64,000 nucleotides of DNA, from assembly GCF_001677475.2 (NCBI RefSeq), contig NZ_CP015229.1; one strand, 5' to 3'. The notes below the pieces were generated by a model. The model saw only the letters and a list, made by a program, of their open reading frames with translations, was not told where the DNA came from and did not search any database. The position numbers and the translations under genes were made by a program. Positions 8,379 to 15,566 of this stretch are shown piece after piece; within the stretch, counting starts at the first letter, position 1; each line of letters starts with the position of its first letter. This DNA comes from Escherichia coli (GTDB taxonomy: Bacteria; Pseudomonadota; Gammaproteobacteria; Enterobacterales; Enterobacteriaceae).

Positions 8379-8768
8379 ATGATTGACGCTCATGACTTCA
8401 CAAGATGGGTGCGCACACAGGACACCCGTCTGGCTCCCGTTCTTCAGGGATTATTTGATCTTTACATCCGTGGTCGTGACAACAGAGCACGCACTACAAA
8501 ACCGGAGAATGCGGACACCCTTTATTTCACAGTAGACGACTGCTACCGCGTGGACTTCACACCACACGGGCTGGCGTTGCACTGCCTGACACCACACGGC
8601 GAATCACTGCTGGCGTATTACGACTCCCCGGCCTCCGTATTTGCGGCAATGCTGGCGCATCGCACTGCTGGCGGGTGTGCCTCGCTGAGTGAATACACCG
8701 CTGAATTTAACCGCCTTTCCGCCATCTTCTCGCAGGAGTGGCAGCGCGTGACGGGATACCAGCCATGA
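8379..8768 (+). CDS. hypothetical protein; stop overlaps start of gene A
   Basis: 129-aa ORF; ATGA overlap at 8765-8768. Confidence 0.5.
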   Translation: MIDAHDFTRWVRTQDTRLAPVLQGLFDLYIRGRDNRARTTKPENADTLYFTVDDCYRVDFTPHGLALHCLTPHGESLLAYYDSPASVFAAMLAHRTAGGCASLSEYTAEFNRLSAIFSQEWQRVTGYQP

Positions 8769-11605
8769 GTGAGTTTGCATGGAGCTGGAATGAACCACGG
8801 CCAGCCATTGATCCGGCCAGATTTACGGAGCGCAGGCAGGAAACTGAAACCGACCTGCAACGCGCCATCCGTTACTACCTTGAGGCAGACAAAAGGGCAC
8901 AGGAAGAACAGGAAGCGAAGGAAGAAGCCTTTTTCGCACAATCCACCGTGGGTAAAAAACTCATGGCATCCCTTGAGGAAGCCGGACAGCGTGAAAAGCT
9001 GGCACAGAGCATCATCAGTAAGCGCCGGGCAACAGAACAAGACACGGTAGCCCGTGCCTTTGCCACACTAAAGGCACTACCTGTTTATCTGCGTGAACCA
9101 CTGAGCCGCCACCTCTCTTTCCTGCGCAAAAAACAGGAAGCCGATCGCCGGAAAGGCAAAAAGAGCTGGCAGGCGGAACGCTATGCACGCGGAACCCTGC
9201 GCAAAATATTCGAACGTCTGGACCGCACCGACAGCCGCTGGCTGACACCGGGTTATCGCGCCCTTGCCGGACGCGAACGCCTGGACGATTTGCTTTACCT
9301 GCCGCAGCTCAACAAACACCAGATACAGACGCTGGCCACCATGACAGCGGCGATGTTCAGCAGCACCTTCGAAAAACTCTGCGATGGCTTTGGCGCGACT
9401 GATGGCGAGCTGACCATGGATGTAACGCTGAAGGCGTATCAGATGCTGGCCCGCATGGCGTTACACCTGCACGCCATGCCTCCGCATTATGACGTACTGA
9501 CAACAGACAAAGACCGGAGGAACGAACCAGACACAGAACTGCTGCCGGGCGCAATCCTTCGCCTGACCTGTGCGGAATGGTGGAAACGCAAACTGTGGCT
9601 GTTACGTTGCGAGTGGCGGGAAGAACAACTCCGAGCCGCCTGTCTGGTTTCCAGAAAAACATCGCCCTATCTGAGCCAGGACGCGTTAAGCGAGTTTCGC
9701 GCACAGCGCGAGAAAACACGCGATTTCCTGAAAAGTTTCATGCTGGAAAATGAAGACGGGTTCACGATTGATCTCGAGACGGTGTATTACGCGGGAGTAA
9801 GTAACCCGGTTCACCGTAAGGCAGAAATGATGGCCACCATGAAGGGACTGGAACTTCTGGCCGAAGCCCGTGGCGACAGAGCGGTGTTTCTGACCGTCAC
9901 CTGCCCGTCAAAATACCACGCAACAACGGAGAACGGTCATCCGAACCCCAAATGGAACGGGGCCACCATGCGCGACTCCAGCGATTACCTGGTTAACACG
10001 TTTTTTGCGGCGGTCCGCAAAAAACTGAACCGCGACGGCCTGCGCTGGTATGGCATCCGCACGGTGGAGCCTCACCATGACGGCACTGTGCACTGGCATA
10101 TGATGGTCTTTGCACATCCGGACGAGATTGAAACCATCGTGTCCCACGTCTGCGATATTGCCATTCAGGAGGACCGCCACGAGCTGGGCGATGACATAAC
10201 TCCGCGTTTTAAGGCGGAGTATGTCGACGGCTCAAAAGGCACACCAACCAGCTACATCGCCACCTACATCGGAAAGAACTTGGACAGCCGCGCCGTGGAT
10301 GGCATCGACCCGAAAACGGGCAAGCCACGCGTTGACCACGAAACCGGAAAATCAATGGCCGAGAGCGTGGAGCGCGCCATCGGCTGGGCGCGCCTTCACC
10401 GGGTCCGTCAGTTCCAGTTCTTTGGCATCCCCTCCCGTCAGGTGTGGCGTGAACTGCGCCGCCTTGCCAGCCAGATGGCACGCAATCCGGAAGGCCCGCA
10501 ACGGCTGAAAGATGATGCAATGGATGCGGTACTCGCTGCCGCCGATGCCGGGTGTTTTGCCACCTACATTGAAAAACAGGGTGGCGTGCTTGTTCCACGC
10601 AAGGACTACCTGATTCGCACCGCCTACGACCTCGCAGATGAGCTGAACGATTACGGCGAACAGAGCGTACAGATTTACGGGATCTGGTCACCACTCATCG
10701 GGGAATCCTCCCGTGTGTGCACGCATCCGGATAACTGGAAGTTGGTAAGACGTAAACCAGAACCGGAAGACAACGCCCACGAAAATGGTTTTGACCTTCA
10801 GGGCGGCCCTGCCGCCCCTTGGACTCGTGGCAATAACTGTCCCCGTGTACAGGAAACGGACAATAACGGGACAGAACTGCCGGAAGAACGGCCAGCACCG
10901 TGGCCGCAGCTCCCTGACGGCGTTGAAGTGAACGAATGGATGCGCTCACTGAAACAGCACGAACGCCGGGCGCTGATGCGTTCGCTTCGTGACAAACAGG
11001 CAAAAAACAGCAGTGATGAAATGCAGAGCTGGACACAGAGCCGCAAACAGCAGCGGCCTTTGCCTGATAACCACGAATTACTCGCTAAAGAATGGCGGGA
11101 GTCTGCTGAATCTCTCGGCCTGCATATCGGTGAACAACAGATGCAGCACCTGTTACGGGGCGGCAGCCTGTACGTTGACGGCAGCATCATTGCACCGCAG
11201 GGATTTGAAATTGTACGCAAACCGGATACCCGCCCGGACAGCCGAATCACGCAGCTCTGGCAGCGCCTGAGCCGTAATCATGGCGTAAGCAGCACGGAGA
11301 TCCGCCATAACCCGGTCGCCAGCTATCTGGCACAGCTGGGGGCATCAGACCCTGAAGTCGCCGCACGCCTGGCATCCACACTTCAGCAGGACCAGAACAC
11401 CATGAAAACACCCGTTACCGTGCTTTCTGACATGCTGCGCGCCATCCGCGACGCAGAGCACGCACAGAGAATCAGTGAAACCACTGAACGCGCCCGCCGC
11501 AAAGCAGACCTGCTGCGGGGTGGCCTGACCAGTGGAAACAAAAAACAGACAGAAACGGGACTCATGAATCCCGTAAATGAGCAAAAAACGCGCAGCGATA
11601 TATGA
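8765..11605 (+). CDS. A: replication initiation endonuclease, P2 gpA-like (rolling-circle HUH nickase) with long C-terminal extension
   Basis: HUH-type motif in GTVHWHMMVFAHPD; position after early genes; 946 aa from ATG 8765. Confidence 0.85.
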   Translation: MSEFAWSWNEPRPAIDPARFTERRQETETDLQRAIRYYLEADKRAQEEQEAKEEAFFAQSTVGKKLMASLEEAGQREKLAQSIISKRRATEQDTVARAFATLKALPVYLREPLSRHLSFLRKKQEADRRKGKKSWQAERYARGTLRKIFERLDRTDSRWLTPGYRALAGRERLDDLLYLPQLNKHQIQTLATMTAAMFSSTFEKLCDGFGATDGELTMDVTLKAYQMLARMALHLHAMPPHYDVLTTDKDRRNEPDTELLPGAILRLTCAEWWKRKLWLLRCEWREEQLRAACLVSRKTSPYLSQDALSEFRAQREKTRDFLKSFMLENEDGFTIDLETVYYAGVSNPVHRKAEMMATMKGLELLAEARGDRAVFLTVTCPSKYHATTENGHPNPKWNGATMRDSSDYLVNTFFAAVRKKLNRDGLRWYGIRTVEPHHDGTVHWHMMVFAHPDEIETIVSHVCDIAIQEDRHELGDDITPRFKAEYVDGSKGTPTSYIATYIGKNLDSRAVDGIDPKTGKPRVDHETGKSMAESVERAIGWARLHRVRQFQFFGIPSRQVWRELRRLASQMARNPEGPQRLKDDAMDAVLAAADAGCFATYIEKQGGVLVPRKDYLIRTAYDLADELNDYGEQSVQIYGIWSPLIGESSRVCTHPDNWKLVRRKPEPEDNAHENGFDLQGGPAAPWTRGNNCPRVQETDNNGTELPEERPAPWPQLPDGVEVNEWMRSLKQHERRALMRSLRDKQAKNSSDEMQSWTQSRKQQRPLPDNHELLAKEWRESAESLGLHIGEQQMQHLLRGGSLYVDGSIIAPQGFEIVRKPDTRPDSRITQLWQRLSRNHGVSSTEIRHNPVASYLAQLGASDPEVAARLASTLQQDQNTMKTPVTVLSDMLRAIRDAEHAQRISETTERARRKADLLRGGLTSGNKKQTETGLMNPVNEQKTRSDI

Positions 11606-11653
11606 AGCGCGCACAAAACAGGCAAAAACGGGATTTTAGAATCCCGTAAACGA
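11540..11653. repeat. two ~35-bp imperfect direct repeats, each containing the palindrome acggga-N4-6-tcccgt; candidate parC-like centromere/operator
   Basis: Repeat 1 at 11553-11580 (inside the A 3' end), repeat 2 at 11626-11653 (just upstream of parM). Confidence 0.5.
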
Positions 11654-11681: not shown

Positions 11682-12641
11682 ATGAAAATTTGTATCGACG
11701 ACGGCTCCACCAACATCAAGCTGGCATGGACTGAGAACGGCGAACGCCGCAACGCCATCAGCCCGAACAGCTTCAAGTCGGAATGGTCTGCGCCGTTCGG
11801 TGGCACGCAGCCCGCGAACTACATGCTTGATGGCGTGCGCTATGGTTTTGATCCGGTCAGCGATCGCTTTGTCCAGACGACCGACACGCAATACCAGTAC
11901 AGCGATGTGAATGTCATTGCCATTCATCACGCGCTGGTCAAATCAGGCATCACGCCACAGGAGGTGGATGTGGTTGTCACCCTGCCACTGAGCGAGTATT
12001 TCGACACAAACGCACAGCCGGACATGGCCAACATCAACCGCAAAAAAGCGAACGTTATGCGCCCGGTGGAGTACCAGAACGGCGAAGCATTCACTATCCG
12101 TAACGTGCGGGTTATGCCTGAATCCATTCCGGCTGGCTTTAAGGCACTGGCTGACATGAGTCCGTTTGAATCCCTGCTGATTGTAGATTTGGGCGGAACC
12201 ACGCTGGATGTGGCAAAGGTTCAGGGGCAACTGGCAGGTATCAGCCAGGTGTTTTGCGATCCACACGTAGGCGTTTCTCTGATGGCCGATGCCGTACTGT
12301 CGGTGATGGCCACTAACGGTATGCGCACCAGTCACCACATCGCCAATACCATTATCGAACATCGCCATAATGAAGCCTGGCTGCGCCAGCACATCCACAA
12401 TGACGCGCATTACGCCAGCCTGATGGAGGTTATTCGTGAAAAGGAAGAAACACTGAAACAACGCGTGATCCGCGCGCTGGCGGGTTTTTCGGGTTACGGG
12501 CGGGTGATGGTTGTCGGTGGAGGGGCGGAGATTGTGGCACCCGCTATCCGCGAAGCCTGCGGAGTTCATGCGACTTTCATCGCGGACGGGGTGCCACAGT
12601 TTGCTCTGGTTAATGGGCTGTACGCAATGGACAAGGAGTAA
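11682..12641 (+). CDS. parM: actin-like segregation ATPase, ParM/StbA family
   Basis: 319 aa; motifs IDDGSTNIKL, ISPNSFK, VMPESIPAG, DLGGTTLD, GGGAE, VNGLY parallel plasmid R1 ParM as recalled. Confidence 0.8.
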   Translation: MKICIDDGSTNIKLAWTENGERRNAISPNSFKSEWSAPFGGTQPANYMLDGVRYGFDPVSDRFVQTTDTQYQYSDVNVIAIHHALVKSGITPQEVDVVVTLPLSEYFDTNAQPDMANINRKKANVMRPVEYQNGEAFTIRNVRVMPESIPAGFKALADMSPFESLLIVDLGGTTLDVAKVQGQLAGISQVFCDPHVGVSLMADAVLSVMATNGMRTSHHIANTIIEHRHNEAWLRQHIHNDAHYASLMEVIREKEETLKQRVIRALAGFSGYGRVMVVGGGAEIVAPAIREACGVHATFIADGVPQFALVNGLYAMDKE

Positions 12642-12645
12642 ACCA

Positions 12646-12957
12646 ATGACGACACCAACCAGACGGATAAGTTTCTATCTGAAGCCTGCGGCCGTCAAGA
12701 ACGAAAGCGAAGCATGCGCCTGGCTGGACAGCCTTACACCAGAAGCCCGCAAAAGCGGCCAACGCGTGGCTTTTCTGGCCGGGCTGGCACTTCTGAAAAT
12801 GAATCCGGCAGAGGCTTACCGACTGGCTGCATGGGCTGACGATGAGGCGTTATCAGTGACACAAACCAGGACAGAATGCCCCGCGTCACAGCCAGTATCA
12901 ACCGCACAGATAACCAGTCAGATGGCCGGAAATATCCGGGCGTTATTTCCCGAATAA
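12646..12957 (+). CDS. parR: ParR/StbB-like partition adaptor (DNA-binding)
   Basis: 103 aa directly after parM; RRISFYLKP...LDSLTPEARKS...AFLAGLALL and C-terminal NIRALFPE resemble R1 ParR as recalled. Confidence 0.65.
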   Translation: MTTPTRRISFYLKPAAVKNESEACAWLDSLTPEARKSGQRVAFLAGLALLKMNPAEAYRLAAWADDEALSVTQTRTECPASQPVSTAQITSQMAGNIRALFPE

Positions 12958-12962
12958 CACAA

Positions 12963-12986
12963 CATCAGGGCGCATCCGCCCTGATG
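12963..12986 (+). terminator. hairpin after parR (catcagggcg-catc-cgccctgatg)
   Basis: 10-bp perfect stem; weak T tract, so terminator function is uncertain. Confidence 0.35.
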
Positions 12987-13020
12987 ACTTTAATCCGGGA
13001 ACATAAACAAGGGGGACACA

Positions 13021-13356
13021 ATGCAACACATTGACAGAGAAAAAGCGCAGCGACTGATTGAGCGAATGGAAGCGCTGGCGAAAGAAGAAAATGTCAACAT
13101 CCAAAAAATAGCTGAATGTGGCCAGATAGTTCTTCGTCGTGAAAAAGACATCAAGCAACTGATGTCTGGCGAAATCAGCAAAACATGGACTTCAGGCAAG
13201 AAGACGATTTATTGCAGCTTCTGCAATAAATCCCAGCACGAAGTCATAAAGGTGATTGCCGGACCGTCTGTTTACATCTGCAATGAGTGCGTGGATTTGT
13301 GCAATGAAATTATCAGAAGAGAAGTGACAGACCATGAAGAAAAAACGCATGAATGA
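13021..13356 (+). CDS. stand-alone ClpX zinc-binding-domain (ZBD) homologue with unique N-terminal region
   Basis: 111 aa; segment [39 protein letters not shown] closely matches the E. coli ClpX N-terminal C4 zinc-finger as recalled; no AAA+ module follows. Confidence 0.75.
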
Positions 13357-13418: not shown

Positions 13419-13943
13419 ATGAAAAAATACGAATACATGCTAATGAAAGAAGCACTGCGGGCTGGTCTGGCTCCCTGTCCTGTATCCGTAGAAGCTGTTG
13501 TTGGGAACACGATTTTCCGAACGCTGCGAAATCGCGTATCCGTGAAGATGATTCACCAACCACCCAAATCTACCAGCATGATCTATCTGCCGCTGCCCGA
13601 GGCTATCAAACTTATGCGTTCGCTGAAATTTGCGATTTGGATGCAGACACAACTCAACAAAGCGGTGCAAAACACCTTCGTTAAGAAACTGATGCCGGAG
13701 CTTGCTGCCAGATGTGCAAAATGTACCAGACCCGCACTTCAATTTGATCTGTCATTGATTCAACAAGCTACGGAGGCAGAACTGTACCGCCTGTCACCTC
13801 TCCATGATGTTCACACGGAAGCCTCAGAAATGTTCCGGCTCATGTTTCAATTTAATTTTGCCGTTCGACGCACACGCGTTCAGGTCAATCGCATGATGCA
13901 GGCGCAGGAAGAGCTGACGCAACACAAAGGAGGCAACCAGTGA
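13419..13943 (+). CDS. hypothetical protein (cargo, gene A-proximal hotspot)
   Basis: 174-aa ORF from ATG 13419 with RBS; stop overlaps next start. Confidence 0.55.
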   Translation: MKKYEYMLMKEALRAGLAPCPVSVEAVVGNTIFRTLRNRVSVKMIHQPPKSTSMIYLPLPEAIKLMRSLKFAIWMQTQLNKAVQNTFVKKLMPELAARCAKCTRPALQFDLSLIQQATEAELYRLSPLHDVHTEASEMFRLMFQFNFAVRRTRVQVNRMMQAQEELTQHKGGNQ

Positions 13944-14464
13944 GCAAGATTGACTATCAGGCATTACGCGAACGCTATTCACCTGCGCCAGTACCGAAAT
14001 GCCCTATTTGCGGCGAGGAAATGTCAATTCAGCGAATATCTGGAGCACAGGTTGTTTATGCCTGCTCCGGTTATGGTGATGATGGAGATTTCAAAATTGG
14101 TCGAACTCTTGCCGACGAACATTATGAAAAATCGCGCGTAACAGTGTTGGATGTCGGGGATCCTGAAGTATTGGCGCTACTTGATTGGCTGGAAACTAAA
14201 GACAACCGAATCGCTGAACTGGAAAAAATCGCCACTGACTATGCACTTAAATTCCAGAAAGCACAGGACGCATTAAAGCATGCCGCTTTGCTGCATAGCC
14301 GGACGGCGCAACAAACAAATAATTTTGCAGTATCGCTTCCGGACATAAGCGAATATTTCATTAATGACGTATTTCAGCCCTTGCGATACGAGCGGGATGT
14401 TGAAAGAGCCATCATAAAGGCTGGCGGAAAAGCATTGTGGCAGGAGAAACACGACGACAGATAA
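13940..14464 (+). CDS. hypothetical protein with N-terminal CxxC...C zinc-ribbon-like motif
   Basis: 174-aa ORF ATGA-coupled to previous gene; CPICGEEM...YACSGYG. Confidence 0.55.
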   Translation: MSKIDYQALRERYSPAPVPKCPICGEEMSIQRISGAQVVYACSGYGDDGDFKIGRTLADEHYEKSRVTVLDVGDPEVLALLDWLETKDNRIAELEKIATDYALKFQKAQDALKHAALLHSRTAQQTNNFAVSLPDISEYFINDVFQPLRYERDVERAIIKAGGKALWQEKHDDR

Positions 14465-15041
14465 AAATAACACCTGATCTCCCTCAAACCAGGGCGATAA
14501 TCGCGCATCGCCCTGCTGCACAATAGTGCACAAATTTGCACAATTTTTTTGAACGACTTTTTGCCCTTCCGGCCCGCGTGGCGGCTGGATCCGTCAAGGA
14601 TCCGTGCGTGCACAAAAAAACGCGTTTTTTCTGCGCGCAGGTGACGGGGGAACAGCCCGCGTTTCAGGGGGTAAATAGCGTTCCCTTAACGATGTCGCAG
14701 CGACACGACAGAATGGCCGTATCGCTCACGCTGAGCGTGAAAAATACGTGAGGGATTCTGATTTGATGGGGTGAAAGGTAAGGCCGTCAAAATCGCACTG
14801 AGGCGGCGAGAACATGCAGTCAGCGCGGTGGGATTGTGTAGAGTCTGGCCGTCGATGATAGCGATAAGTCGGAAGATGTCGTGAAATTATCTGATTGATA
14901 CGGGAGCTGGAGAGCCGGGGCATAAATTTTTTATGCCCCGGCGAAGCAGCAGACAAGCGAAGCGCGTCAGTGATGCGGCACCTTGCCGACCACACTTCAT
15001 AAGTGCAAAATACGAGCAAAGAAATCAATGGAGGCTGTTTT

Positions 15042-15566
15042 ATGGTCATTAATTACAAGCAGTTACGAGAAAAACGAGAGCAGGTAAAGGAAAGTTTTCG
15101 CCGCAATGAAGATCTGACCCCGCTTGTACACCTTGCCCAGGGAATTGTTGATGCTTATGAAATCTCTCTGGAGCTGCCATCACAGACATGGACGGATAGC
15201 GACGGTAATCGCCAGCATTACGTTTCATGCGGACTGGAAACAACTGAAGGGTTTCGCAGAATGCCTTTATCTCAGATTCCTGCCGCTACCCCCAAAGCAA
15301 GGGGCGGCAATGATGAGCGAAAACTGATTTTCAGCATTGAGACAGTGGTTGACGACACACCTGGCGAAGTCGCGTTCGTGCATACTCCTCTTTCGATCGC
15401 AATGTATAACGATGAAATACAGGTTCGCGTTAATAATAATATCGTGCCACTTAAAGAAGGTAATTCACCATACACCACCGTTTGTGAAGCCATTCAATAT
15501 TACGTTCTCTCTGAAATTGATAATCTCAAGCCTGACGGCACCCAGAAAATGGTTCAACTCTGGTAA
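15042..15566 (+). CDS. hypothetical protein between cos region and portal gene
   Basis: 174-aa ORF convergent with Q; the ORF-track alternative start is 15003. Confidence 0.5.
   Translation: MVINYKQLREKREQVKESFRRNEDLTPLVHLAQGIVDAYEISLELPSQTWTDSDGNRQHYVSCGLETTEGFRRMPLSQIPAATPKARGGNDERKLIFSIETVVDDTPGEVAFVHTPLSIAMYNDEIQVRVNNNIVPLKEGNSPYTTVCEAIQYYVLSEIDNLKPDGTQKMVQLW

Follow-up and report, generated by a model that had tools for sequence, protein, structure and literature searches.

The window analysed here, the whole of a 64,000-nucleotide stretch of an Escherichia coli genome (contig NZ_CP015229.1, assembly GCF_001677475.2), carries a small gene whose product joins a helical hairpin, through a linker, to a stand-alone version of the zinc-binding domain (ZBD) found at the N terminus of the ClpX unfoldase (Table 1). 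Its surroundings identify a P2-like (Peduoviridae) prophage, in which the ZBD gene follows the replication gene A and the parM and parR genes, and it precedes a set of small ORFs beyond which lie the portal and terminase genes in convergent orientation. For the equivalent A-type endonuclease, RefSeq uses a start that corresponds to position 8783 (940 aa).

Table 1. Features of the ZBD gene, its product and its neighbours, in window coordinates
Feature	Coordinates	Strand	Description
A-type replication endonuclease	8738-11605	+	ORF from GTG 8738, 955 aa
ParM	11682-12641		ORF after gene A
ParR-like protein	12646-12957		ORF directly before the inverted repeat and the ZBD gene
Perfect inverted repeat (DNA hairpin)	12963-12986		10-bp GC-rich stem, CATCAGGGCG-CATC-CGCCCTGATG; between parR and the ZBD gene
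Shine-Dalgarno AAGGGGG	13009-13015	+	5 nt before the ATG; strong, as read from the sequence
ZBD-gene CDS	13021-13356	+	111 aa, ATG start, stop codon included; helical hairpin, linker and ClpX-type ZBD
Two-helix hairpin	13036-13164	+	residues 6-48 (helices 6-23 and 27-48); family-specific domain
Disordered linker	13165-13206	+	residues 49-62; pLDDT below 50 at 53-59
ClpX-type C4 ZBD	13207-13320	+	residues 63-100; predicted Zn ligands C65, C68, C87, C90
Charged C-terminal tail	13321-13353	+	residues 101-111; alleles end ...TDHEEKTHE or ...TDKKGKNA
174-aa ORF	13419-13943	+	directly downstream of the ZBD gene; own GAGGA ribosome-binding site
ead/Ea22-like gene	13940-14464	+	product starts with a CPICG...C zinc-ribbon-like motif
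187-aa ORF	15003-15566	+	PHROG 5091, function-unknown family; just before the portal gene

A sequence-only reading of this DNA had proposed that the interval encodes a 111-residue protein composed of a unique N-terminal region and a segment nearly identical to the host ClpX ZBD, with no AAA+ module, and each of these proposals is borne out. The ATG-started ORF occupies exactly the interval assigned to it on the plus strand, and residues 64-99 of its product match the Pfam family zf-C4_ClpX (PF06689; E 4.2e-17, model positions 2-38 of 39), while in the PDB residues 59-104 align with the experimentally determined ZBD of E. coli ClpX (1OVX, E 2.3e-20; 2DS5, E 7e-20). When the protein is aligned with the N terminus of E. 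coli ClpX, as that reading had suggested, 31 of the 38 residues of the ZBD core are identical to the K-12 protein (82%), and the CxxC-18-CxxC arrangement of the four predicted zinc ligands reproduces the spacing of ClpX C14, C17, C36 and C39. All four cysteines are invariant in an alignment of 16 full-length family members. The AlphaFold model of the domain superposes on 2DS5/2DS8 with an rmsd of 0.6 A (target-normalised TM-score of 0.89 over 40 columns for 2DS5_A), and the predicted fold is a beta-hairpin followed by a C-terminal helix, as in the ClpX-type family. Residues that form the docking patch of ClpX are retained, F16 as F67 (invariant in the 16 members) and I46 as I97 (isoleucine or valine). 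Additionally, I86, V91 and C94 are invariant in the family ZBDs and positions 97 and 98 are only ever isoleucine or valine; the surface positions that vary within the family include R25, P31, Y34, L42 and R48. An AAA+ module is absent: the protein stops at residue 111, the downstream ORF is unrelated, and the NCBIfam ClpX models TIGR00382 and PRK05342 are matched at positions 3-53 only and give 50.1 and 49.3 bits, where the curated cut-offs stand at 370.75 and 359. These comparisons assign the phage protein to the zf-C4_ClpX domain family but not to ClpX itself.

The N-terminal region proves to be a conserved domain rather than a random extension. AlphaFold assigns pLDDT values of 81-92 across residues 1-40, and a profile of the region run against 1.84 billion representative proteins returned 18 matches, of which all the full-length ones carry the ZBD. 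Among viral loci retrieved from IMG/VR with the same profile, 65 of 65 carry the two-domain gene. Judged from these searches, the hairpin is a family-specific domain that never occurs alone and is always accompanied by the ZBD. Searches of Pfam and the PDB for relatives of the hairpin gave nothing significant, the best PDB match being the L27 domain of LIN-7 (E 0.34). Across the 16 aligned full-length relatives the linker differs in length by up to about 14 residues.

Selection has acted unevenly on these parts. In six P2-type alleles, for which the substitution counts are small, dN/dS is 0.44 over the whole gene and lowest in the ZBD (0.23), with 0.46 in the hairpin and 0.90 in the linker, a pattern that describes, at the level of these alleles, two constrained domains on a free, neutrally evolving tether. 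The DNA is about 67-69% identical to clpX; the core is 67% identical to the K-12 gene, and 20 of the 32 codons for identical residues differ synonymously, which agrees with the statement of the sequence-only reading that the DNA had clearly diverged from the host gene. When eight members are compared with clpX, DNA identity ranges from 59 to 75%, and in each member synonymous changes affect half or more of the codons for identical residues; synonymous sites are nearly saturated, and the protein sequence has nonetheless been retained. This degree of DNA divergence argues that the ZBD is an old capture kept by selection at the protein level. A recent host gene fragment is ruled out by the DNA divergence and the synonymous differences in all eight members, and the gene is likewise not a product of gene conversion.

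Across diverged members the hairpins share a mean identity of 40% and the ZBDs 63%, and the mean identity of a ZBD to E. coli ClpX is 76%. Such values fit ZBDs that descend from a ClpX-like ancestor and have drifted independently, in star-like fashion, under strong constraint. The same figures, 76% to ClpX against 63% among members, give no sign of convergence on the host protein, since star-like divergence fits them, and they do not by themselves show mimicry over and above conservation. The gene is also damaged in places, with frameshifted, truncated or internally deleted alleles (P0010, P0016, P0018 and P0126), which indicates that an optional gene occasionally decays. The allele of O55:H7 strain CB9615 (L010) bears Y85C and C94S.

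Of 5426 complete E. coli genomes, 111 carry the ZBD gene, among them UTI89 and strains of ST131, O55:H7 and O145. The parM-parR region matches about 1306 of the same 5426 genomes, and homology breaks just after parR. The break, together with the disparity between 111 and about 1306 genomes, argues that the gene is cargo and not a partner of the partition cassette; by genome comparison it is the first item of a variable cargo region between gene A and the portal gene. As to conservation across P2-like prophages, which the sequence-only reading had proposed to check, the gene recurs in them, but as optional cargo of about 8% of the parMR-carrying P2-like prophages of E. coli and not as a core P2 gene. 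A role as a third component of a ParMRC system is excluded by the same counts, and relatives of the gene are present, with no parMR alongside, in other P2-like prophages and in phage-plasmids. In P2-like prophages without parMR, diverged members (P0124, P0125, P0131, L050 and L051) again lie between gene A and the portal gene.

Beyond the P2-like prophages, full-length homologues of about 50% identity are carried by some 94 plasmids, mostly of 84-117 kb and mainly non-mobilizable, from Escherichia, Salmonella or Shigella. These include the P1-like phage D6 and a group of about 107-115 kb, which we take to be SSU5-like phage-plasmids. In the annotated D6 sequence and two annotated plasmids, the gene comes immediately behind ead/Ea22-like genes, within a group of small genes that share its strand, and in two annotated phage-plasmid records it belongs to a same-strand run of small genes adjoining ref. 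The family is already catalogued under several names. The RefSeq protein WP_047657269, whose DNA is 100% identical in strain ETEC4090, bears the PGAP name "ClpX C4-type zinc finger protein"; PHROG 6797, a family of unknown function, is matched over its full length (E 7.6e-57, residues 1-105 on positions 5-106 of 107); and gp19 of the isolated phage P88 (NC_026014.1 10195-10527) belongs to the same family, where it is labelled "carboxylate--amine ligase". This last label, which recurs in GenBank, RefSeq phage, TPA and many nr entries, is unsupported by any domain search. Full-text literature searches returned no paper on a stand-alone ClpX ZBD in a phage.

The upstream region offers a hint of how the gene may be expressed. 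No sigma-70-like promoter was found upstream of the ZBD gene on the plus strand, which argues that transcription probably occurs by read-through from the A-parM-parR transcript. In P2-like prophages the ZBD gene and the early replication gene A lie on the same strand, and this orientation, taken with the missing promoter-like site, suggests expression with the early operon. The inverted repeat between parR and the ZBD gene has a T tract on the minus strand only and none on the plus strand; it may serve attenuation or stabilisation of the transcript. It also coincides with the point where prophage homology breaks, at the start of the variable cargo region.

The neighbours of the gene are recurrent without being constant. 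Mosaic ead/Ea22-like genes are the commonest, in P2-like prophages, D6-like elements and larger phage-plasmids (L004, L005, L006, L017), and homologues of the 174-aa ORF (73-79% identical) follow the ZBD subtype of about 50% identity in parMR-carrying P2-like prophages (L065, L068, L083). A constant partner gene is rejected, however, because each of these two also occurs without the ZBD gene. The 174-aa ORF has no match in PHROGs, NCBIfam or PADLOC, and a short match hints that it can directly follow parR where the ZBD gene is missing. The 187-aa ORF before the portal gene recurs as separate cargo in similar prophages (L009, L025, L039). With the PADLOC-DB 2.0 defence models, neither the ZBD protein nor five neighbours gave a match at E <= 0.01.

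One neighbour bears on a possible client. In 18 E. coli genomes a convergent Phd/YefM-Doc pair follows the ZBD gene, and at megablast sensitivity that Phd/Doc allele was never found in E. coli genomes without the ZBD gene. Four IMG/VR loci share the convergent arrangement, and a distant member (P0133, on a contig of 44.7% GC) adjoins a divergently oriented homologous pair, with 58% identity in Doc and 29% in the antitoxin. Loci with such a pair, all outside the window, include L009 (4503-5254), L020, L021 and L011 (301-1106). Within E. coli the linkage could reflect one inherited cassette, and the association as a whole rests on two arrangements, too few for a statistical claim. The antitoxin Phd of P1 is described as a classic substrate of ClpXP (Lehnherr and Yarmolinsky 1995, as cited in PMC10286901); by analogy, the adjacency may reflect a functional link. 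The Phd/Doc neighbour is the only contextual suggestion of a client; otherwise, judging from gene context, the client is not deducible, because the gene has no constant neighbour.

We tentatively favour, at a little less than an even chance, the reading that the phage protein is a trans-acting mimic of the domain by which ClpX docks adaptors and substrates. The comparisons above establish the identity of the domain, the architecture, the selection and the genomic distribution of the gene; binding, inhibition, timing of expression and client are inferences. Temperate enterobacterial phages would make the protein, probably on an early transcript that runs through gene A, and its ZBD would offer ligands the hydrophobic docking surface that they meet on ClpX. 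Adaptors such as SspB or RssB would be captured there, and so would substrates of the type of lambda-O, MuA or UmuD, and the captured ligands would be withheld from ClpXP, such that ZBD-dependent degradation would be selectively reduced and ZBD-independent degradation, as of proteins with ssrA-type C-terminal degrons, would continue. The linker and hairpin would probably add self-association, and with it avidity, or a second binding specificity. A candidate beneficiary would be a ClpXP-labile Phd-type antitoxin, the protection of which would amount to an "anti-death" function like that of lambda RexB.

Several lines of published biochemistry make such a decoy plausible. The ClpX ZBD is needed for RssB-dependent degradation of sigma-S and not for that of ssrA-tagged substrates, and when isolated ZBD is supplied in trans at 5-20 uM, 0.6 uM ClpXP is inhibited in its RssB-dependent turnover of sigma-S (PMC7226468); it is because of this inhibition in vitro that the idea is, by analogy, biochemically plausible. 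Isolated ZBD binds XB-containing peptides with a KD of 35-82 nM (PMC12373786), and the hydrophobic F16/I46 patch, kept in the phage protein as F67 and I97, is common to the docking of lambda-O, SspB, RssB and trigger factor (PMC7804408). Phages are known to encode anti-protease proteins, among them lambda RexB, directed at the ClpP-dependent degradation of antitoxins, and the Lon-directed T7 gp4.5 and T4 PinA (PMC10286901), and T5 Gp00X drives RpoS to ClpXP. ClpX matters in prophage induction and in toxin-antitoxin-type defence, including the P2-borne CmdTAC system. On the other side, the gene is optional and has no constant neighbour. Several of the ClpXP-dependent defence events, moreover, rely on C-terminal AA degrons (CmdTAC; bioRxiv 10.1101/2024.02.24.581848), and a free ZBD should not, by analogy, block degrons that are recognised at the pore, such as that of CmdA.

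Plain competition nonetheless leaves the obligatory N-terminal domain unexplained, and this keeps alive a reading in which the phage ZBD pairs with the ZBD of host ClpX and, as a heterodimerising "Trojan" subunit, attaches the hairpin to the ClpX hexamer. Thus attached, the hairpin would either recruit a target in the manner of an adaptor or, as a poison subunit, block or reposition the N-domain crown, and the specificity of ClpXP would be re-programmed. Such an arrangement, in which a binding module is tied by a flexible linker of variable length to an anchor, resembles that of tethered adaptors and would accommodate a neutral linker between two constrained end domains, one of them never dispensed with. 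ZBDs are moreover obligate dimers whose dimerisation is well documented (PMC7226468), and the core and helix residues of the domain are conserved (I86, V91 and C94 invariant, I97/I98 isoleucine or valine), but these residues also serve ligand docking, such that their conservation does not discriminate between the two models. Against pairing with the host domain, ZBD dimers within ClpX are stable, and Pfam and PDB searches identify no partner for the hairpin. When two copies of the phage protein were modelled by AlphaFold as a GGGGS-linked tandem homodimer with a paired alignment, confidence fell (pLDDT 59.7, pTM 0.39), and the model lent no support to self-association. We consider heterodimerisation unlikely, if still a serious contender. 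Decidedly unlikely, in our estimate, is the bolder proposal that the intruding N-domain enters or competes with the ClpX crown and re-programs ClpXP at induction, whether by shielding an antitoxin (Phd) or through retargeting directed by the hairpin. If this were true, Doc-type toxins, the phage's own or resident ones, would stay silent by virtue of shielded antitoxins, and the protein would represent the first natural example of a virus that edits the degradome of its host by means of a copied unfoldase specificity domain.

Two further readings place the function of the protein elsewhere. It might be an exclusion or fitness factor expressed in the lysogen, which either raises RpoS by titrating RssB, as Ira proteins do, or blocks superinfecting phages that depend on the ClpX N-domain, such as those of the Mu type; growth of Mu requires ClpX. 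The location of the gene would suit such a factor, given that the hypervariable A-to-portal region of P2-like prophages also carries defence systems such as PD-T4-9/CmdTAC (bioRxiv 10.1101/2024.02.24.581848), as would the stabilisation of sigma-S by free ZBD in vitro (PMC7226468). We nevertheless regard a lysogenic role as quite improbable: no promoter-like site lies ahead of the ZBD gene, and PADLOC gives no match for its product or neighbours. Additionally, D6-like phage-plasmids place the gene in the same-strand accessory run adjoining ref, which, by comparison with P1, we presume to consist of repressor-controlled early genes, and this early-gene reading suggests lytic rather than lysogenic expression. 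Very improbable, finally, is the recruitment of the ZBD fold to a task outside ClpX biology, such as binding of a phage or host protein or of nucleic acid, or the alternative that the gene is what is left of a decaying phage clpX. Zinc fingers of the treble-clef type are versatile, the domain does vary at its surface (R25, P31, Y34, L42 and R48 among others), and four alleles (P0010, P0016, P0018, P0126) are frameshifted or truncated; yet the ZBDs keep an average 76% identity to host ClpX where the N-terminal domains share only 40%, neither domain reaches a dN/dS of 1, lineages of about 50% identity in three phage types all preserve the architecture, and no AAA+ remnant follows the ZBD gene.

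Comparison of the proposed docking-domain mimic with known systems helps to define what sets it apart. With the ZBD of ClpX itself (PF06689; 1OVX, 2DS5-2DS8) it has in common the C4 spacing, 82% core identity and the F16/I46 residues, but the phage domain lacks the AAA+ ring, is fused via a flexible linker to the hairpin, and is encoded by temperate phages in DNA long diverged from clpX. The recombinant isolated ClpX ZBD (PMC7226468) is, like the phage protein, a free ZBD without an unfoldase; it is a laboratory truncation, whereas the phage protein is a natural, selected product with an extra domain. RexB, T7 gp4.5, T4 PinA and T5 Gp00X are, likewise, small phage proteins that alter degradation by host AAA+ proteases, and RexB protects antitoxins such as Phd, but none of them copies the protease's own docking domain and all are unrelated in sequence to the phage ZBD protein. 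The host anti-adaptors IraD, IraM and IraP, also small in size, cover the part of RssB that would otherwise meet the ClpX ZBD and in this way stabilise sigma-S (PMC7226468). They differ in being host-encoded stress regulators with unrelated folds that bind RssB only, whereas a phage ZBD mimic is predicted to bind every ZBD ligand. By analogy, then, the closest functional kin would be the laboratory free-ZBD competitor, the Ira anti-adaptors and phage protease inhibitors such as RexB; what distinguishes the phage protein from all of these, as far as sequence can tell, is that it joins a novel domain to a naturally occurring copy of the specificity domain of an unfoldase.

Substrate choice by ClpXP depends largely on docking at the ZBD. 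If the proposed mechanism is true, phages would be able to adjust the part of the degradome that depends on the ZBD (sigma-S, substrates delivered by SspB, UmuD', proteins of replication and transposition, and perhaps antitoxins) and still leave ClpXP otherwise at work, and the protein would provide a genetic tool with which to separate ZBD-dependent from ZBD-independent proteolysis in vivo. The gene is present in well-studied pathogens (UTI89, ST131, O55:H7, O145) and in D6-type and about 108-kb phage-plasmids, such that any effects would bear on the physiology of lysogens, including the stress response, SOS mutagenesis and toxin-antitoxin stability.

The locus also has features that are of interest apart from the ZBD gene. 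The ParM/ParR partition cassette sits, directly after gene A, in a P2-like prophage that is integrated. Just 5' of parM lie two 20-bp palindromes of the form ACGGGAyT-N4-rATCCCGT, at 11555-11574 and 11628-11647, where 0.05 would be expected by chance; these could be a ParR operator or centromere.
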